This document shows, in pieces, positions 1 through 11,438 of a stretch of 11,438 bases of DNA (position 1 is its first letter; every line of letters begins with the position of its first letter). The stretch is from a virus (taxonomy: Duplodnaviria; Heunggongvirae; Uroviricota; Caudoviricetes): IMG/VR virus record IMGVR_UViG_2778261246_000003, one strand, 5' to 3'. Below the pieces are notes generated by a model that saw only the letters and a list, made by a program, of their open reading frames with translations, searched no databases and was not told where the DNA came from. The position numbers and the translations under genes were made by a program.

Positions 1-140
1 TCTGAGGCAGCACCTGGCACGGCTGGGACGGAAGTCGCTGTCGTTCTCAAAATCGGTGGAGCTGCATGACAAAGTCATCGGGCATTATCTGAACATAAAA
101 CACTATCAATAAGTTGGAGTCATTACCACAAAAGTAATCC

Positions 141-170
141 TTGCTATGGGTGGTTAATCATGCGTTAATG
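141..170 (+). promoter_or_regulatory. Candidate sigma70 promoter of the cold-shock gene (cspA-like: -35 TTGCTA, 18-nt spacer, -10 TTAATG), followed by a long (~145 nt) 5' UTR
   Basis: TTGCTA at 141-146 and TTAATG at 165-170 resemble the cspA promoter layout (TTGCAT ... ATGCGTGGCTTAATG) as I recall it. An AT-rich stretch lies upstream. The long leader before the ATG at 322 is typical of csp mRNAs. Not verified experimentally. Confidence 0.35.
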
Positions 171-321
171 GTGTTCTGGTTTGTTACAAATTTATCTGAA
201 GCAGTCATTGTTATAATTTTATTATTTGTACCTCTTGAGATTTCCTTGTTGGTTTTTCTCTCTGATATTTTTTTTTCGGACCATTCTGCCCAAGGGCTAA
301 TTTCTTCAAAAGGTAATAATT

Positions 322-534
322 ATGTCTAACAAAATGACTGGTTTAGTGAAATGGTTTAACCCTGAAAAAGGTTTTGGTTTCATCACGCCGAAAGATGGCA
401 GCAAAGATGTGTTTGTCCATTTCTCAGCAATTCAGAGCAACGATTTCAAAACATTAACTGAGAATCAGGAAGTTGAATTTGGTATTGAGAACGGACCTAA
501 AGGTCCTGCCGCTGTTCATGTAGTGGCGCTTTGA
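322..534 (+). CDS. cspI: CspA-family cold-shock protein (70 aa), prophage-borne paralog
   Basis: The translation [34 protein letters not shown]... carries the RNP1-like KGFGFI and RNP2-like VFVHF motifs of the cold-shock domain. The RBS AAAGGTAATAATT-ATG is near-identical to the cspA RBS. Paralog assignment (CspI versus CspG/CspB) is from memory and uncertain; the family call is confident. Confidence 0.9.
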
Positions 535-622
535 GGTAGACAATATTACAAACCATATTCACTTTAGATGCCCGTGTTGTCATGGTTCCCAGTATAGAAC
601 ATCATCTTTTGATGTTTCTGAC

Positions 623-733
623 ATGAATCCTTTCGGGGCAAAATGTATCTTTTGTAAATCAATGATGATTACATTTGATAATATTTCACAATACTTAAAT
701 GCCAGCCGTCTGTCGTTGGATTTAATAAAGTGA
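623..733 (+). CDS. Small Cys-rich protein (possible zinc ribbon; resembles the small ORFs that follow prophage csp genes, YmcF/YnfQ-like)
   Basis: The frame is open from 524 to the TGA at 731-733 and encodes ...RCPCCHGSQYRTSSFDVSDMNPFGAKCIFCKSMMITFDNISQYLNASRLSLDLIK. The first ATG is at 623, so the CPCC half-site would need a non-canonical start upstream. The ORF ends 6 nt before a strong intrinsic terminator. Too small to appear in the supplied ORF track. Confidence 0.3.
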   Translation: MNPFGAKCIFCKSMMITFDNISQYLNASRLSLDLIK

Positions 734-738
734 AAATG

Positions 739-761
739 AAGGCTCCTTCGGGAGCTTTTTT
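739..761 (+). terminator. Rho-independent terminator of the csp transcription unit
   Basis: GC stem GCTCC/GGAGC closed by a UUCG tetraloop (742-755), extendable with flanking A/T pairs, followed by TTTTTT (756-761). Confidence 0.6.
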
Positions 762-805
762 GCTTGGTGTCTATTCGATGGATACTCACATACTACGGTA
801 ACATC

Positions 806-1036
806 ATGAAAAAAATCATAGTTTTTTTTAACTCTGAACCAGCAGTGGTAGTGCCAGCGATGACTGGAGTTAACACCATCATGCGTGAATATCCAAATGG
901 CGAAAAAACACACCTTACTGTAATGGCCGCAGGGTTTCCATCTCTGACCGGAGATCATAAAGTCATTTATGTAGCCGCGGATCGACATGTTACTTCAGAA
1001 GAAATTCTGGAAGCAGCAATAAGGCTCTTGAGTTGA
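806..1036 (+). CDS. Hypothetical 76-aa protein (position and size as for the small ORF between csp and gns in E. coli; YmcE-like?)
   Basis: ATG at 806 (MKKIIVFFNSEPAVVVP...) lies after the upstream terminator; the longer track ORF from 764 would start inside that terminator. The RBS is weak. No recognisable motif. Confidence 0.4.
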   Translation: MKKIIVFFNSEPAVVVPAMTGVNTIMREYPNGEKTHLTVMAAGFPSLTGDHKVIYVAADRHVTSEEILEAAIRLLS

Positions 1037-1207
1037 TTTGATGCTATTGCATTGATAATTCAGGAAAATTCTCTTTGTCTGTTTGTGTAAAATTTAGACT
1101 ATCGTATGTTGATTATTGCGATGTTTCATCTTATCTTTTACACGTTTGCACCATATAATCGACTTACTGTGTAACTGGAAAGTCATAACAGACTAAAAGA
1201 GGAAATG

Positions 1208-1381
1208 ATGAATATTGAAAACTTAAAAACAAAAGCAGAAGCAGATATTTCTGAATATATAACAAAAAAAATTATTGAACTTAAGAAAAAGACCGGGAAA
1301 GAAGTTACCAGTATTCAGTTTACCGCACGGGAAAAAATGACGGGTCTTGAAAGCTATGATGTCAAGATTAATTTAATCTGA
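1208..1381 (+). CDS. gnsB: GnsA/GnsB-family protein (57 aa; overexpression suppressor of secG/fabA phenotypes in E. coli)
   Basis: The translation MNIENLKTKAEADISEYITKKIIELKKKTGKEVTSIQFTAREKMTGLESYDVKINLI matches the Gns family from memory (conserved FTAREKMTGLESYDVKI). A strong SD (AAGAGGA) lies 4 nt upstream of the ATG at 1208. Below the 60-aa cutoff of the ORF track. The A/B paralog call is uncertain. Confidence 0.8.
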   Translation: MNIENLKTKAEADISEYITKKIIELKKKTGKEVTSIQFTAREKMTGLESYDVKINLI

Positions 1382-1407
1382 TGTATTCAATAATAAAATT
1401 TATCCAT

Positions 1408-1433
1408 AAACCTCGTTTTTACGGGGTTTTGTT
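1408..1433 (+). terminator. Probable intrinsic terminator downstream of gns
   Basis: Hairpin CCTCG-TTTTTA-CGGGG (one G:U pair) followed by TTTTGTT. It may act bidirectionally for the convergent minus-strand gene. Confidence 0.35.
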
Positions 1434-1532
1434 ATATTTGAATGGTTCCGAATATCTAAATCACAATTGTTGATGGTTTTTATTAAACCAATGCAGTCCG
1501 GCTCAGGAGTGAGAGAAGCCGGACGTTATGGT

Positions 1533-1943
1533 TTAGCGTGGTAAGATCTGTGTAGTTTTCTGGATGCTTTCAGTAAATAGTAATGAATTATCAAAGGTAT
1601 AGTAATATCTTTTTTGTTCGTGGATATTTGTAACCCACCGAAAAACTCCTGCTTTAGCAAGGTTTCTTCTGTATTCCTGAAATGTGATCTCTCTGGATTT
1701 CAGCTTATTAGAGGTCGTTTCTATAAGATGCCTATCCTTTGAAAATTTGACAGACACAATGTTTTTTAGGCCCTTTAATAACACTGTATTATCATTTTTT
1801 AATACAATATGAACATTCTCTGTGGCTAAATAGTAAATGTAATGTGAGACATTGTGACGTTTTAGCTCAGAATAAAACCATTGATAGTTTAAATCGTTTC
1901 GAACTTTATCAAATATTTGTTTAAAAATGACTACCTGATCCAT
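1533..1943 (-). CDS. Hypothetical low-GC protein (136 aa); position and size consistent with the YdfO/YbcV (DUF1398) family of lambdoid prophages
   Basis: Minus-strand ORF. I prefer the internal start MDQVVIF... because GGAAGG lies 7 nt upstream of it; the track start at 1958 has no SD. Strongly AT-rich. Family assignment is by context and size and is tentative. Confidence 0.6.
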
Positions 1944-2000
1944 AGATAAACCTTCCATGTGATATGAGGGGGCGTAGTCTGCACGATTATCTAAATTGCT

Positions 2001-2234
2001 TCAATCTGGTCTGACCTGTTTTCTGAGCAATTCAGTAATGTCACTCTTTTCTTTGTTTGCTTCAGGAGAAACTCTTTTTTCTGAGCACAGTCTCCGGCGG
2101 CAGGCTTCAATGACCCAGGCTGAGAAATTCCCGGACCCTTTTTGATCAAGAGCGATGTTAATTTGTTCAATCATTTGTTTAGGAAAGCGGATGTTGCGGG
2201 TTGTTGTTCTGCGGGTTCTGTTCTTCGTTGACAT
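2001..2234 (-). CDS. Small basic protein (77 aa), YdfK/YnaE-like, encoded at the extreme right end of the lambda-like phage genome
   Basis: Translation MSTKNRTRRTTTRNIRFPKQMIEQINIALDQKGSGNFSAWVIEACRRRL... The DNA from its start codon to cos matches the lambda right end from memory. Family name recalled, not verified. Confidence 0.5.
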   Translation of the reverse strand: MSTKNRTRRTTTRNIRFPKQMIEQINIALDQKGSGNFSAWVIEACRRRLCSEKRVSPEANKEKSDITELLRKQVRPD

Positions 2235-2394
2235 GAGGTTGTCCCGTATTCAGTGTCGCTGATTTGTATTGTCTGAAGTTGTTTTTACGTTAAGTTGATG
2301 CAGATCAATTAATACGATACCTGCGTCATAATTGATTATTTGACGTGGTTTGATGGCGTAGATGCACGTTGTGACATGTAGATGATAATTATTA

Positions 2395-2620
2395 TCATTT
2401 TTCGGGTCCTTTCCGGCGATCCGACAGGTTACGGGGCGGCGACCTCGCGGGTTTTCGCTATTTATGAAAATTTTCCGGTTTAAGGCGTTTCCGTTCTTCT
2501 TCGTCGTAACTTAATGTTTTTATTTAAAATACCCCCTGAAAAGAAAGGAAACGACAGGTGCTGAAAGCGAGCTTTTTGGCCTCTGTCGTTTCCTTTCTCT
2601 GTTTTTGTCCGTGGAATGAA
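2395..2620 (+). other. Phage cos region (cosQ - cosN - cosB), the terminase recognition and cleavage site
   Basis: ...GATCCGACAGGTTACG (lambda right end, cosQ side) is followed by GGGCGGCGACCTCGCGGGTTTTCGCTATTTATGAAAATTTTCCGGTTTAAGGCG..., which is the lambda left end as I recall it. The Nu1-binding R elements and IHF site are expected in 2446-2620; I did not map them individually. Confidence 0.85.
2434..2445 (+). other. cosN: the 12-nt cohesive-end sequence GGGCGGCGACCT (staggered terminase nicking site)
   Basis: Exact match to the lambda 12-nt 5' overhang, located between right-end and left-end homology. Confidence 0.85.
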
Positions 2621-2622
2621 CA

Positions 2623-3142
2623 ATGGAAGTCAACAAAAAGCAGCTGGCTGACATTTTCGGTGCGAGTATCCGTACCATTCAGAACTGGCAGGAACAGGGA
2701 ATGCCCGTTCTGCGAGGCGGTGGCAAGGGTAATGAGGTGCTTTATGACTCTGCCGCCGTTATAAAATGGTATGCCGAAAGGGATGCTGAAATTGAGAACG
2801 AAAAGCTGCGCCGGGAGGTTGAAGAACTGCGCCAGGCCAGCGAGGCAGATCTCCAGCCAGGGACTATTGCGTACGAACGCCATCGACTTACGCGTGCGCA
2901 GGCCGACGCACAGGAACTGAAGAATGCCAGAGACTCAGCTGAAGTGGTGGAAACCGCATTCTGTACTTTCGTGCTGTCGCGGATCGCAGGTGAAATTGCC
3001 AGTATTCTCGACGGGATCCCCCTGTCGGTGCAGCGGCGTTTTCCGGAACTGGAAAACCGACATGTTGATTTCCTGAAACGGGATATCATCAAAGCCATGA
3101 ACAAAGCAGCCGCGCTGGATGAACTGATACCGGGGTTGCTGA

Positions 3143-3168
<26 letters not shown>
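2623..3168 (+). CDS. nu1: Terminase small subunit Nu1 (181 aa)
   Basis: The translation (MEVNKKQLADIFGASIRTIQNWQEQGMPVLRGGGKGNEVLY...) is essentially lambda gpNu1 with an N-terminal winged-HTH. It sits immediately right of cosB. Confidence 0.97.
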
Positions 3169-6849
<3,681 letters not shown>

Positions 6850-6869
<20 letters not shown>

Positions 6870-8169
6870 TCTCCCGCATATTGCCAGCATGGCTTTTAAT
6901 GAGCCGCTGATGCTTGAACCCGCCTATGCGCGGGTTTTCTTTTGTGCGCTTGCAGGCCAGCTTGGGATCAGTCGCCTGACGGATGCGGTGTCCGGCGACA
7001 GCCTGACTGCCGGAGAGGCACCCGCGGCGCTGGCGTTATCCGGTGATGATGACGGACCACGACAGGCCCGCAGTTATCAGGTCATGAACGGCATCGCCGT
7101 GCTGCCGGTGTCCGGTACGCTGGTCAGCCGGACGCGGGCGCTGCAGCCGTATTCGGGAATGACCGGTTACAACGGCATTATCGCCCGTCTGCAACAGGCT
7201 GCCAGCGATCCGATGGTGGACGGCATTCTGCTCGATATGGACACACCGGGCGGGATGGTGGCGGGAGCATTTGACTGTGCTGACATCATCGCCCGTGTGC
7301 GAGACATAAAACCGGTATGGGCGCTGGCCAACGACATGAACTGCAGTGCAGGTCAGCTGCTTGCCAGCGCCGCCTCCCGGCGTCTGGTCACGCAGACCGC
7401 CCGGACAGGCTCCATCGGCGTCATGATGGCTCACAGTAATTACGGTGCTGCGCTGGAGAAACAGGGCGTGGAAATCACGCTGATTTACAGCGGCAGCCAT
7501 AAGGTGGATGGCAACCCCTACAGCCATCTTCCGGATGACGTCCGGGAGACACTGCAGTCCCGGATGGATGCAACCCGCCGGATGTTTGCGCAGAAGGTGT
7601 CGGCATATACCGGCCTGTCCGTGCAGGCTGTGCTGGATACCGAGGCTGCAGTGTACAGCGGTCAGGAGGCCATTGATGCCGGACTGGCTGATGAACTTGT
7701 CAACAGCACCGATGCGATCACCGTTATGCGTGATGCACTGGATGCACGTAAATCCCGTCTCTCAGGAGGGCGAATGACCAAAGAGACTCAATCAACAACT
7801 GTTTCAGCCACTGCTTCGCAGGCTGACGTTACTGACGTGGTGCCAGCGACGGAGGGCGAAAACGCCAGCGCGGCGCAGCCGGACGTGAACGCGCAGATCA
7901 CCGCTGCGGTTGCGGCAGAAAACAGCCGCATTATGGGGATCCTCAACTGTGAGGAGGCTCACGGACGCGAAGAACAGGCCCGCGTGCTGGCAGAAACCCC
8001 CGGTATGACCGTGGAAACGGCCCGCCGCATTCTGGCCGCAGCACCACAGAGTGCACAGGCGCGCAGTGACACTGCGCTGGATCGTCTGATGCAGGGGGCA
8101 CCGGCACCGCTGGTTGCAGGTAACCCGGCATCTGATGCCGTTAACGATTTGCTGAACACACCAGTGTAA
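6850..8169 (+). CDS. C: Head maturation protease / minor capsid protein C (439 aa, GTG start)
   Basis: Matches lambda gpC (VTAELRNLPHIASMAFNEPLMLEPAYARVFF...). GTG at 6850 is preceded by AGGAGAAGAG and overlaps the end of B by 20 nt. The track ORF from 6715 is an upstream in-frame extension without support. Confidence 0.9.
7564..8169 (+). CDS. nu3: Scaffolding protein Nu3 (201 aa), translated in-frame from an internal start within C
   Basis: Lambda Nu3 shares the reading frame and stop of C. Applying the lambda C-to-Nu3 offset to this window lands exactly on an in-frame ATG (MDATRRMFAQKV...). Coordinates recalled from the lambda map, not recomputed by alignment. Confidence 0.7.
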   Translation: MDATRRMFAQKVSAYTGLSVQAVLDTEAAVYSGQEAIDAGLADELVNSTDAITVMRDALDARKSRLSGGRMTKETQSTTVSATASQADVTDVVPATEGENASAAQPDVNAQITAAVAAENSRIMGILNCEEAHGREEQARVLAETPGMTVETARRILAAAPQSAQARSDTALDRLMQGAPAPLVAGNPASDAVNDLLNTPV

Positions 8170-8178
8170 GGGATGTTT

Positions 8179-8511
8179 ATGACGAGCAAAGAAACCTTTA
8201 CCCATTACCAGCCGCAGGGCAACAGTGACCCGGCTCATACCGCAACCGCGCCCGGCGGATTGAGTGCGAAAGCGCCTGCAATGACCCCGCTGATGCTGGA
8301 CACCTCCACCCGTAAGCTGGTTGCGTGGGATGGCACCACCGACGGTGCTGCCGTTGGCATTCTTGCAGTTGCTGCTGACCAGACCAGCACCACACTGACG
8401 TTCTACAAGTCCGGCACGTTCCGTTATGAGGATGTGCTCTGGCCGGAGGCTGCCAGCGACGAGACGAAAAAACGGACCGCGTTTGCCGGAACGGCAATCA
8501 GCATCGTTTAA
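8179..8511 (+). CDS. D: Head decoration protein D (110 aa)
   Basis: [41 protein letters not shown]... matches lambda gpD. SD AAGGGA lies 5 nt upstream of the ATG at 8179. The track start at 8173 adds two codons that I reject. Confidence 0.95.
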
Positions 8512-8530
8512 CTTTACCCTTCATCACTAA

Positions 8531-8553
8531 AGGCCGCCTGTGCGGCTTTTTTT
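8531..8553 (+). terminator. Hairpin plus T-run between D and E (terminator-like; probably read through in the antiterminated late transcript)
   Basis: GCCGC-CTGT-GCGGC stem-loop followed by TTTTTTT. It sits in the D-E intergenic region of the late operon. Confidence 0.35.
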
Positions 8554-8566
8554 ACGGGATTTTTTT

Positions 8567-8842
8567 ATGTCGATGTACACAACCGCCCAGCTGCTGGCGG
8601 CAAATGAGCAGAAATTTAAGTTTGATCCGCTGTTTCTGCGTCTCTTTTTCCGTGAGAGCTATCCCTTCACCACGGAGAAAGTCTATCTCTCACAAATTCC
8701 GGGACTGGTAAACATGGCGCTGTACGTTTCGCCGATTGTTTCCGGTGAGGTTATCCGCTCCCGTGGCGGCTCCACCTCTGAATTTACACCGGGATATGTC
8801 AAGCCGAAGCACTTAGCATGGCTTTCTGAGGCTTTCGTGTAG
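8567..8842 (+). pseudogene. E: Major capsid protein E, 5' fragment only (codons 1-82 of ~341), fused to 9 unrelated codons and a stop
   Basis: MSMYTTAQLLAANEQKFKFDPLFLRLFFRESYPFTTEKVYLSQIPGLVNMALYVSPIVSGEVIRSRGGSTSEFTPGYVKPKH matches the lambda gpE N-terminus. After codon 82 (CAC at 8810-8812) the sequence becomes LAWLSEAFV-stop instead of EVNPQMTLRR.... Confidence 0.85.
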
Positions 8843-8974
8843 TTGCTGGTTTTTACACTTAATCTTTTGATAATAAAGAATAAGTTTATCTGGCGCTTTC
8901 ACTGAATTTTCCTCGTTATCTGTGTGTTGCAATCATCTCTGTATTGCAGCTTGTATTGCTTTTTGGGGCTAAAA

Positions 8975-10210
8975 ATGGCTGGCGAGAACAAACTGAGCGA
9001 CAAAGCGCTTAAAGGATATCTGGGGAAACCCAGAGAAAAGCAGATCACCATTGCTGATGGAAAGGGGCTTTCTATTCGTGTGAGTACTAAAGGGGCTGTG
9101 AGCTTTGTTTTCTTCTACAGGTTAGCAGGTGGCCGGGCTGCTCCGGTCTGGCTAACGTTGGGTAAATATCCTGATATGTCACTCAAACAGGCAAGGGAAA
9201 AGCGCGACGAGTGCCGTGGTTGGTTGGCTGACAAACGTGATCCGCGTATCCAGATTAAGATTCAGGCTGAAGAACGCTTAAAGCCGGTCACAGTGGAGGA
9301 TGCACTAAATTACTGGTATGAAAATTACTGTAAGGTGCGTCGTAAAACTCATGCTGTAACGCTTGGCAGATTTCGAAAGCATATCTTTCCCTATATCGGT
9401 CATTTGCCCGTAAATGACACTCACCTATATGAATGGCTGGACTGTTTTGACCGAATTAAACGTAATGCACCAGTTATGGCGGCGTATGTTTTTTCTGACA
9501 CTAAATTAGCTCTTCGTTTTTGTCGGGTACGCCAGTACGCGACGTGTGATGCTTTAAAGGATTTGCGCATGAGTGATGTGGGGCAGATTGCAGGTAAGCG
9601 GGATCGGGTTCTGGATGAAGCCGAACTCGGCCAGCTCTGGAAGGCAATTTTTGTCGAGCCTGATTTAAAACTAATGTCTGAATACACGCGAAAAATGTTT
9701 GTGCTTTGTACAGTATTTGGATGTCGAATGAGTGAAGCCCGATTATCAGAATGGAGCGAATGGGATCTCGAAAGTTGGGTTTGGACTGTACCAAAAGATC
9801 ACTCAAAAACTGGTGTTGAAATCGTCAGACCAGTACCTGAAATTCTACGACAGTGGGTAACGGATGTTCACGAAGAGACAAAACATACTGGTTATGTGCT
9901 GGGAAGTCTGCGAATTAGAGAAAGCGTAAGCAAGATTGGGGGGAAAATCGGTAAACGTTTGGGCCATGAAAAACAATGGTCACTACACGACCTTAGAAGA
10001 ACGCTATCTACTCATCTAAGTGATCTCGGTGTTGAATTTTATGTAGTAGAACAACTGTTAGGCCATGCGCTACCTGGCGTGGCAGGTGTTTACAATCGGA
10101 GTAAGTTTATGGCTAAAAAACTGGATGCTCTGGAACTCTGGACTACATATCTCAATAGCATCGCAGGTGCTGATTCAAAAGTGACAATCCTCAAACAAAA
10201 GGCTGGTTAA
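8975..10210 (+). CDS. int: Tyrosine recombinase / phage integrase, P4 (CP4-57 IntA)-like with N-terminal arm-binding domain (411 aa)
   Basis: The N-terminus LSDKALKGYLGKPREKQITIADGKGLSIRVSTKGAVSFVFFYR fits the DUF4102-type arm-binding domain. The C-terminus has catalytic-box-like HDLRRT and GHALPGVAGVYNRS (candidate Tyr). I prefer the ATG at 8975 (GGGG 6 nt upstream) to the GTG at 8924 used by the track. Confidence 0.9.
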   Translation: MAGENKLSDKALKGYLGKPREKQITIADGKGLSIRVSTKGAVSFVFFYRLAGGRAAPVWLTLGKYPDMSLKQAREKRDECRGWLADKRDPRIQIKIQAEERLKPVTVEDALNYWYENYCKVRRKTHAVTLGRFRKHIFPYIGHLPVNDTHLYEWLDCFDRIKRNAPVMAAYVFSDTKLALRFCRVRQYATCDALKDLRMSDVGQIAGKRDRVLDEAELGQLWKAIFVEPDLKLMSEYTRKMFVLCTVFGCRMSEARLSEWSEWDLESWVWTVPKDHSKTGVEIVRPVPEILRQWVTDVHEETKHTGYVLGSLRIRESVSKIGGKIGKRLGHEKQWSLHDLRRTLSTHLSDLGVEFYVVEQLLGHALPGVAGVYNRSKFMAKKLDALELWTTYLNSIAGADSKVTILKQKAG

Positions 10211-10211
10211 C

Positions 10212-10439
10212 ATGAAAAAAATGGCAATTGTTGATAAAAAGGGTCTGGAGTACATTCCTAACATTGATCGTATGATCCGTGAGAAAGAATGTCGGGAGCT
10301 AACCACTCTTGCGAACAGCACACGCTGGAAGCTGGAGAAGGAAGGAAAATTTCCTAAGCGGATCAAGATTGGCGCTACTGCGGTAGCTTACCGTCTCTCC
10401 GAAGTTCAGGCATGGATTAAGGGAGAATGGAGTAATTAA
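10212..10439 (+). CDS. alpA: AlpA-family (Xis/Vis-like) small DNA-binding regulator (75 aa)
   Basis: ...ECRELTTLANSTRWKLEKEGKFPKRIKIGATAVAYRLSEVQAWIKGE matches the AlpA/MerR-like HTH signature (GKFPKxIKxG...VAxRxSEVxAWI). It starts 1 nt after the integrase stop. The start could instead be the ATG at 10221. Confidence 0.75.
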   Translation: MKKMAIVDKKGLEYIPNIDRMIREKECRELTTLANSTRWKLEKEGKFPKRIKIGATAVAYRLSEVQAWIKGEWSN

Positions 10440-10457
10440 ATAATAAGGTATTTCGAT

Positions 10458-11279
10458 ATGACAATGTGTGTTATTTGGAAGTCAGTTGATGGAACTATTT
10501 ATGCCGCCACAGATTCTCGACTGAGCTTTGAAGAAAAAAAGTTAGATCGTTGCGTTAAAATATCCCGAATCACATGTCTTTTACATGAGCCTAGTGATGC
10601 AGTAGATACAAGTAAGATACTTGTTGATAAGCGTGAGATTGCTACATTATTCTGTGGAGGCTTTACAAATGCCTATATCATCAAGGAGAGCCTTACTGAG
10701 ATTTTAAATAAAATAGTTCTCATGAGGGAATACTCCGGCGTGCCCTTTTCGGAAATTATAGATATAGCGTTTTCCATTTATGAAGATACATCAAGAGATA
10801 TGTTTGCATCATTAATGGACCAACGATTTGGATGTGTTTTTTACATGATAAGTTACTGCCCTGTATATAAGGAAATGCAAGCATTTAAATTTGAATTCAA
10901 AATAAATGAAAACGGTATTAACTATTATAAATCTAAACTTTTTGAAGATCGTAACTATGAGGTTAATGGAAGTGGGGTGAGGTACTTGGAACAAAATCAT
11001 CGTATTGAAGATCTAGTTAAAGAAGCTTATCAGAAGAATAAATACACACCACTTCTAGATATACTTGAGTCCGTAATTAATGATGACGACTGTGACTCTG
11101 TTGGAGGTGCAATGCAATACATTTCATGTAATAAAGATAGACTAAAATTGTGTTGTCATATGTTATTTGAAGAAAATAATCATAAGTATATGAAAGCTGG
11201 GGTGGACTTAAATGAACTCAATGAGAAGTTTATACCTTCTGGTTTGTTTTTTGAGACAGATGCAATCATCAAAAGATAA
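10458..11279 (+). CDS. Uncharacterised AT-rich protein (273 aa); no confident family assignment; possible N-terminal-nucleophile hydrolase-like N-terminus
   Basis: Long ORF in very AT-rich DNA with a start 18 nt after alpA. The N-terminus MTMCVIWKSVDGTIYAATDSR resembles the N-terminal strand of proteasome-beta/HslV-type Ntn hydrolases (T/C nucleophile - hydrophobic - DG - hydrophobic - A(A/G)xDSR). This is pattern-level only. Confidence 0.7.
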   Translation: MTMCVIWKSVDGTIYAATDSRLSFEEKKLDRCVKISRITCLLHEPSDAVDTSKILVDKREIATLFCGGFTNAYIIKESLTEILNKIVLMREYSGVPFSEIIDIAFSIYEDTSRDMFASLMDQRFGCVFYMISYCPVYKEMQAFKFEFKINENGINYYKSKLFEDRNYEVNGSGVRYLEQNHRIEDLVKEAYQKNKYTPLLDILESVINDDDCDSVGGAMQYISCNKDRLKLCCHMLFEENNHKYMKAGVDLNELNEKFIPSGLFFETDAIIKR

Positions 11280-11375
11280 ACGATAACCGACTTTGATTGT
11301 GATAATTTTATTGAGCTGGCCCCCTGAAATACCAGACAGTAGATGTATCTTAAAATAAGAGATAGGCTTGGATAT

Positions 11376-11438
11376 ATGTCTAACACTAGTTCTAATTTTG
11401 AGATGGCTGGCGTTTTGTTAGGAAAAGAGGTGCGTAAA
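11376..11438 (+). CDS. 5' end of a further ORF (MSNTSSNFEMAGVLLGKEVRK...), running off the window
   Basis: ATG at 11376 with an open frame to the window edge, about 95 nt downstream of the 273-aa gene on the same strand. Too short to classify. Confidence 0.3.
   Translation, partial: MSNTSSNFEMAGVLLGKEVRK

Follow-up and report, generated by a model that had tools for sequence, protein, structure and literature searches.

Attachment site of a probable helper-embedded PICI inside gene E, for the major capsid protein, in a lambda-like prophage

Eco567.11capE (Eco567.11.E_Phage_cap_E_80), the prototype of the helper-embedded PICIs (HE-PICIs), is known from E. coli NRG857c, where an icd-integrated prophage carries this 11-kb island in its lambda-type capsid gene E (Tommasini, Mageeney & Williams 2023, PMC10111431). 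Its features are a 10-bp identity block, a capsid gene of its own that belongs to the same family as the interrupted one, a PICI organisation and the same orientation as the late genes of the prophage; 201 instances were reported at the E site (PMC10111431). Upon addition of mitomycin C to the prototype strain the composite of prophage and satellite excises and replicates first, and the satellite is precisely excised ~1 h later, at about 2 h, which restores E; qPCR data and deep-sequencing reads were published that cover attL, attR, attP and attB (PMC10111431). Satellite and helper share a 258-bp cos match, and late read-through into the satellite was proposed by the authors; no satellite or helper virions were recovered from the prototype strain, and many of the helpers look truncated (PMC10111431).

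A search of the literature on "HE-PICI" found nothing beyond this one report (PMC10111431). The arrangement considered here was already described and experimentally tested in 2023, its site, integrase, core sequence and arm motif are all published, and the present DNA is one more instance of it, with low residual novelty. A preliminary description of this DNA called the capsid gene an unusual target for an integrating element; this is no longer true, E being the commonest of the 14 published late-gene sites of the integrase clade (PMC10111431).

The prophage late region and the break in gene E

The window, i.e. the whole stretch of 11,438 nucleotides that was analysed, presents the late region of a lambda-like prophage, as identified from the list of open reading frames, Pfam and the RefSeq annotation of near-identical genomes. 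A block of accessory ("moron") genes at 1-2300 is followed by cos and Nu1 (2403-3168), within which the helper cos region together with the 5' part of Nu1 occupies 2403-2960 of the + strand and Nu1 itself, assigned by Pfam Phage_Nu1 and the open reading frame list, occupies 2623-3168. The head genes that follow are all on the + strand: A (3143-5068), W (5065-5271), B (5268-6869), C/Nu3 (6715-8169) and D (8173-8511). The head genes are assigned by the open reading frame list, by Pfam (Phage_Nu1 and HDPD) and by the annotation of matching genes in two related genomes, those of strain Iso00270 and of an O9:H10 pig isolate introduced below. The late (head) operon upstream of the break thus runs from Nu1 to D at 2623-8511, and all of its genes are open reading frames in the window.

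The major capsid gene E is represented by a 5' fragment of codons 1-82 at 8567-8811 (+ strand; Pfam Phage_cap_E and translation), with an ATG start codon at 8567-8569 and 245 nt of E before the break; residues 5-82 of the fragment match positions 1-78 of the Phage_cap_E profile in Pfam. When 8500-9300 was compared by megablast with 50,697 phage records, 80 lambdoid matches of 99.4-99.7% identity were obtained, all of which end at query position 312, equivalent to window position 8811. The whole helper part of the window, 128-8811, aligns in one piece and at 98.8% identity with the isolated phage PhiR42_1, and this alignment also ends at 8811. Codon 82 of E (8810-8812) straddles the break and reads CAc in the window and CAT in lambda, His in both cases; the fused frame continues in translation for nine foreign codons past the break to a stop at 8840-8842. 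The preliminary description had lambda identity extending through D and the start of E and then stopping abruptly, and this was borne out within one base, with 245 nt of E and 8811 as the last lambda base. It had likewise seen no tRNA or tmRNA 3' end at the junction, and ARAGORN and Rfam agree, neither giving a tRNA or a tmRNA over the whole window; a tRNA-targeting island, which was considered as a candidate, was rejected on the same ARAGORN and Rfam result.

The complete element in relatives and its attachment site

Only the first 2.6 kb of the element fall within the window, and attR and the remainder of E were accordingly read in relatives and not in this copy. Three E. coli genomes were examined: strain Iso00270 (L001), the O9:H10 pig isolate (L003), which is 98.0% identical to window positions 1495-11311, and NRG857c (L004). 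In all three, the missing 3' 789 nt of E are located 11.05-11.12 kb downstream, past a second copy of a 10-bp repeat, so that the element measures 11,054-11,124 bp, and the 3' part of E is followed in the relatives by FI, FII, Z, U, V, G, T, H and other tail genes. Removal in silico of the element together with one copy of the repeat yields an in-frame E of 341 aa in each of the three genomes, and 325-326 of the 341 residues of the restored protein are identical to lambda-type E. The junction, counted where at least 80% of an 801-nt junction-spanning query was covered, is present in 171 of 5426 complete E. coli genomes, with 99.5-99.9% identity among the matches listed, and the site is uninterrupted in 3103 complete E. 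coli genomes as well as in isolated phages. The integrase with its adjacent arm was found in 175 genomes; a spread sample gave 39 full-length rows, each with an adjoining annotation of a truncated "major capsid protein".

Because the 3' part of E lies behind the repeat in the relatives, E is restored upon removal of the element, the site is uninterrupted in 3103 genomes and the junction recurs in 171, the sequence comparison identifies the break as a site-specific insertion at a dedicated attB inside E, neither a deletion nor an artefact. The preliminary description had left insertion into the capsid gene and fusion by deletion as alternatives, and it is the former that the 3' part of E, the repeat and the restored gene in the relatives support. 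It had also suggested a search for the remainder of E and for a direct repeat near 8805-8830, both of which were found in the relatives, the repeat matching 8802-8811, and a comparison with empty sites, for which the uninterrupted genomes and isolated phages now serve.

The identity block of attL, AGCCGAAGCA, at 8802-8811 of the + strand, is a 10-bp direct repeat held in common with attR, and the crossover takes place inside it. Both ends of the element carry the block in Iso00270 and in the pig isolate, and in NRG857c both carry a synonymous variant, AACCCAAGCA. It lies at codons 79-82 of E, and the element supplies no replacement 3' end for the gene. In the supplement of the prototype paper 'agccgaagca' is tabulated as the identity block of several E_Phage_cap_E_80 HE-PICIs (PMC10111431). 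The satellite left arm of attL, which corresponds to the P' arm of attP, extends from the crossover to int at 8812-8974 (+ strand), and its first part, 8812-8907, is identical to the published satellite-side attL of 11capE-type elements (supplement, PMC10111431). That an attachment site would lie just upstream of int and coincide with the truncation of E had been expected in the preliminary description, and the repeat at 8802-8811 bears this out.

Within this arm there is a doubled arm-type motif, tcTGTATTGCagctTGTATTGCt, at 8938-8960 (+ strand), presumed to be the site bound by the arm domain of the integrase. It contains exact tandem copies of TGTATTGC at 8940 and 8952, and a third, degenerate copy of the TGTATTGC type, TGTGTTGC, is found at 8923-8930. 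TGTATTGC is not over-represented across the window (9 matches with at most one mismatch, as compared to 10.6 expected), and its significance therefore comes only from the tandem exact copies and their conserved distance from the core. The doubled motif starts 131.5 nt downstream of the core centre, a distance that the window shares with all three relatives, and a second doubled motif is found ~90-100 nt inside attR in Iso00270 and in the pig isolate, with one exact copy at the corresponding end in NRG857c. The HE-PICI-specific doubled motif has been given as tgTGTATTGCantgTGTATTGCa; measured from the attP centre, one copy is 132 +/- 2 bp downstream and another 81 +/- 2 bp upstream (PMC10111431). 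The motif in the window agrees with the published tgTGTATTGCantgTGTATTGCa spacing, the upstream copy being the one seen in the attR of Iso00270 and the pig isolate. The right end of an intact copy would be expected to read ...catgtAGCCGAAGCAtgaagtgaatccgcag, followed by the rest of E, and excision would give an attP of gactcatgtAGCCGAAGCActtagcatgg and a restored E of gtcaAGCCGAAGCAtgaagtg.

The first gene of the element encodes a tyrosine integrase of 411 aa, of the P4 type with an arm-binding domain (8975-10210, + strand; Pfam Arm-DNA-bind_3, Phage_int_SAM_3 and Phage_integrase). The preliminary description placed an integrase gene about 160 nt past the break and reading away from it; precisely, its ATG at 8975 is 164 nt past the last lambda base, on the + strand. 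The protein is identical to the Eco567.11capE integrase of NRG857c at 410 of 411 residues (99.8%), and the int DNA is 100.0% identical to copies in at least 8 genomes. By this identity to the prototype the integrase is assigned to the HE-PICI clade and its cap_E subclade. Next is alpA (10212-10439, + strand), whose 75-aa product is the presumed excisionase and transcription regulator (Pfam Phage_AlpA, 6e-15; phrog_2790, "excisionase and transcriptional regulator"). The region between the E fragment and int contains a weak promoter-like site at 8852-8881 and, in a consensus scan only, no terminator-like site on the + strand.

The first gene of the variable ("Bro" or accessory) zone (10458-11279, + strand) encodes 273 aa and is matched over its full length by phrog_16034, of unknown function. 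A role in anti-phage defence was considered for it but found no support: neither Pfam nor PADLOC gives any match, and phrog_16034 is the only assignment. The slot is occupied in Iso00270 by a diverged 273-aa DUF2971 protein and in the pig isolate by a gene nearly identical to that of the window and annotated as hypothetical. C4 and isrK, immunity RNAs described from the Bro zones of some PICIs, have no Rfam match at the gathering threshold in the window or in the pig isolate.

The window therefore covers the integration zone and the first gene of the variable zone, and the four PICI zones (integration, Bro/variable, replication and late) are seen in the relatives. Their gene order is int, alpA, variable gene(s), an Icd-like gene, small ORFs, DNA primase, SSB, major capsid, decoration, HTH, terS and, at the right end, a variable gene. 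Like Nu1 to E, int and alpA are read from the + strand, as is the primase in all three relatives. The satellite capsid protein and lambda-type E are 41% identical, and the decoration protein shares 40% identity with helper D. By blastn, the helper stretch 2403-2960 of the window is repeated in the satellite late zone at 29509-30066 of L001 (92.5%) and at 30443-31000 of L003 (95.9%); in NRG857c only 2403-2660 is repeated, at 19059-19316 of L004 (258 bp, 91.1%). This copy of cos and Nu1 sequence in the late zone is presumed to be the packaging signal of the satellite. terS of the Iso00270 copy is a pseudogene with an internal stop. The left 2.6 kb of the satellite (8812-11438) are absent from all records of the GenBank phage collection.

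The position of the site at about Phage_cap_E position 80, within a late gene of a prophage, fits the HE-PICI site group E:Phage_cap_E:80. It is thus very probable that the element is a HE-PICI of the 11capE or E:Phage_cap_E:80 type, that the window contains its attL, and that the interrupted prophage is its helper. That the element may be a phage satellite (PICI) exploiting the prophage which it interrupts was not recognised in the preliminary description.

Alternative explanations and a proposed course of excision

A true insertion of the 11capE type could have decayed to an immobile remnant, with a nonfunctional satellite copy or helper and a permanently inactivated prophage. The internal stop in terS of Iso00270 would fit such decay, as would the truncated appearance of many helpers and the lack of recovered virions in the published work (PMC10111431), and 91% of the window is the most that any complete E. 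coli genome matches, which points to a mosaic local context. Against this, int and alpA are intact open reading frames and the int DNA is unchanged among at least 8 genomes, the attL core and the arm motif are intact, and the genes from Nu1 to D are open and 98.8% identical to those of a viable isolated phage; a dead remnant is accordingly considered unlikely. In this connection the earlier statement that the insertion "inactivates the prophage" is too strong, as the interruption can be undone, precise excision upon induction having been observed in the prototype (PMC10111431).

That the element is instead a P4-like satellite or a generic island of the CP4-57 type, and not a PICI, is suggested by the P4-type domains of the integrase and by the adjacent alpA, as in CP4-57 and P4. 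This is very improbable, however, since no sid, psu or delta is annotated in the three relatives, which have in their place a primase, SSB, lambda-type capsid and decoration genes and cos/terS, and neither a tRNA nor a tmRNA gene serves as the integration site.

A fusion by deletion, in which an island and a lambdoid prophage were adjacent and the 3' part of E was lost together with the true att site of the island, would account for the single junction in the window and for the absence of a tRNA-type att site. It is difficult to reconcile with the 3' part of E and the head and tail genes found 11 kb further on behind the repeat, and with the exact restoration of E, in Iso00270, the pig isolate and NRG857c; moreover, the break is base-identical in 171 genomes with differing prophage backbones and chromosomal positions, the distance between the arm motif and the junction is constant, and excision of the prototype is precise (PMC10111431). 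For the 11capE family a deletion fusion has already been refuted, and for the present copy it is highly improbable. An assembly or chimera artefact in which contigs of a prophage and of an island were joined, and for which the abruptness of the break alone would speak, is scarcely credible given the same junction in 171 complete genomes from many laboratories (99.5-99.9% identity among the matches listed) and the published qPCR and reads that span attL, attR, attP and attB (PMC10111431).

The attP of the ~11-kb satellite, which encodes the P4-type integrase, has recombined with the 10-bp match at codons 79-82 of E and split the gene. With the element taken to be an 11capE-type HE-PICI and the prophage its helper, the following course may be proposed. 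In the lysogen the satellite would be silenced and replicated passively with the prophage. Upon induction, Q-antiterminated transcription from pR' would proceed through Nu1-A-W-B-C-D-E' into int-alpA, 164 nt on, and this late read-through would supply integrase and excisionase late and so time the excision of the satellite. Late read-through into int-alpA is at this point hypothetical, and the promoter-like site at 8852-8881 could drive int independently. As helper E would be made only after excision, helper yield would be delayed or lowered. The excised satellite would then replicate from its own primase/SSB module and would be packaged by the helper terminase via the cos copy, in the variant closest to the window with a Nu1-like TerS, into heads possibly formed from the satellite homologues of E and D, to which the helper would add portal, protease/scaffold and tails. 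Packaging, transfer and the remodelling of capsids are unproven, because no virions were obtained from the prototype strain and no phage record contains the left 2.6 kb of the satellite.

Helper-embedded satellites show that a clade of integrases can be specialised for the late genes of phages. A satellite placed inside a phage structural operon would be replicated, transcribed and induced in cis, and would gate capsid production. The arrangement is of interest for the conflict between phages and their satellites, and for the annotation of prophages it follows that a "broken" capsid gene need not equal a dead prophage. As the helper head genes in the window are 98.8% identical to those of the viable phage PhiR42_1, such a helper and its satellite could be easier to work with in experiments than the prototype strain and might help to obtain particles.

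Comparison with the prototype and with other integrating elements

The window and Eco567.11capE share the target, codon 80-82 of E in a lambda-like prophage, the orientation, and an integrase alike at 410 of 411 residues. The satellite-side attL is identical, with the doubled TGTATTGC at equal spacing, and both elements start with int-alpA; the ~11-kb size of the prototype is also that of the window's relatives, and a cos copy is held in common with the helper. They differ in the core, AACCCAAGCA in the prototype and AGCCGAAGCA in the window, a synonymous difference, AGCCGAAGCA being present in the published supplement as well (PMC10111431). After alpA there is a 178-aa reverse-strand ORF in NRG857c and the 273-aa phrog_16034 protein in the window; the prototype lacks terS and has DUF262 and HEPN, whereas in the closest relatives of the window there is a terS of the Nu1 type, and the gene at the right end is like DUF2971/PDC-S31. 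The helpers also differ in backbone and in chromosomal site. It may tentatively be suggested from these sequences that the attP core tracks synonymous variants of helper E, which would imply lineage-specific matching of satellite to helper or conversion in the course of recombination, and that the Nu1-like TerS and the 273-aa gene could mark a sub-lineage with a packaging or interference strategy other than that of the prototype; this is a doubtful proposal.

Gram-negative PICIs such as EcCICFT073 (Fillol-Salom et al. 2018/2019, as cited in PMC10111431) resemble the element in having int-alpA, a primase module and a late zone with capsid-related genes and cos, in their size of ~11 kb and in their lambdoid helper. 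Classical PICIs reside in chromosomal genes apart from the helper and act only in trans, unlike the element in the window, which is located inside the late operon of its helper. P4 and CP4-57 share with it a broad integrase family that combines an arm-binding and a catalytic domain, an adjacent AlpA and an att site immediately upstream of int. These elements, however, target tRNA or tmRNA genes whose 3' end is rebuilt, whereas here the target is a protein-coding phage gene for which no replacement sequence is provided. Of the features of P4 satellites, neither Psu, Delta or Sid (by annotation of the three relatives), nor a P2-like helper, nor a tRNA att site was found, and the helper is lambdoid.

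The skin element in sigK is a known case of regulated gene integrity, or "active lysogeny", in which an element splits a gene and the timed excision of the element restores it. The active-lysogeny concept is cited in the description of the HE-PICIs (PMC10111431). The element in the window would be like skin-type elements in that a gene is split and then restored by timed excision; it is unlike them in that the split gene is that of the helper phage, and the timing is presumed to serve the satellite and not the host cell.

Attachment site and distribution in E. coli genomes

The satellite, a helper-embedded PICI of the 11capE type, lies within the helper capsid gene E, and a 10-bp att identity block (window 8802-8811; 10331-10340 and 21408-21417 in E. 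coli NRG857c, which carries the published prototype satellite Eco567.11capE, PMC10111431) occurs either as AGCCGAAGCA or as its synonymous variant AACCCAAGCA. The attL version is identical to the attR version in every composite examined; this suggests that the attP of the satellite either fits the codon variant of its helper or is converted to it. The left end of the satellite (8812-10210) shows 100.0% identity to at least eight genomes. Coverage of the window above 91% was sought in a collection of complete E. coli genomes and was found in none; the best-matching genomes depart from it at 1-127 and 10419-11438, and several of them contain an IS1 inside the matched stretch.

Accessory genes and mosaicism of the helper

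The Rfam cspA thermoregulator is matched full-length at 175-561 (+) with 111.9 bits (gathering score 78), and downstream of the start of this match an ORF at 322-534 (+) encodes a 70-residue cold-shock-domain protein. The cold-shock gene with its own 5' UTR is an accessory (moron) gene of the lysis/cos-proximal region of the prophage. An accessory block follows at 1205-2234, consisting of a GnsA/GnsB-family toxin gene (1205-1381, +), a DUF1398 gene (1533-1958, -) and a DUF3950/YnfO-like gene (2001-2234, -), and this block is similar to the K-12 Qin prophage region that precedes nohA. The helper is mosaic in window 1-1494, since comparison with two satellite-carrying relatives, E. coli Iso00270 and the O9:H10 pig isolate, found no counterpart of this region in either.

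Direct reading of the D-E intergenic sequence at 8530-8556 (+), within the helper late operon and upstream of the satellite junction, gives a GC-rich hairpin, GCCGC-CTGT-GCGGC, then seven T, that looks like a terminator; it is not among the sites reported by a consensus terminator scan.

Satellite cargo and the cos/Nu1 duplication

Directly 3' of alpA is an ORF of 273 codons (10458-11279, +) that matches phrog_16034, of unknown function, end to end, and searches of Pfam and PADLOC with it gave zero matches. The same slot in Iso00270 holds a DUF2971 protein of equal length and strongly diverged sequence, and the position seems to be one at which the satellite's accessory gene varies. Right-end cargo in related satellites looks defence-like: a DUF2971 protein of the pig isolate (31321-32079, -) matches the PADLOC candidate system PDC-S31 (7e-26), and the prototype in NRG857c carries a DUF262 + HEPN gene pair at its right end (19537-21253, -).

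The late zone of the satellite carries a duplicate of the helper cos and 5' Nu1 segment (window 2403-2960). In the relatives nearest the window, Iso00270 (29509-30066) and the pig isolate (30443-31000), the copy is 558 bp long, is 92-96% identical and includes a Nu1-like small terminase subunit gene (terS), whereas in the published prototype just 258 bp (NRG857c 19059-19316) are duplicated, without terS.
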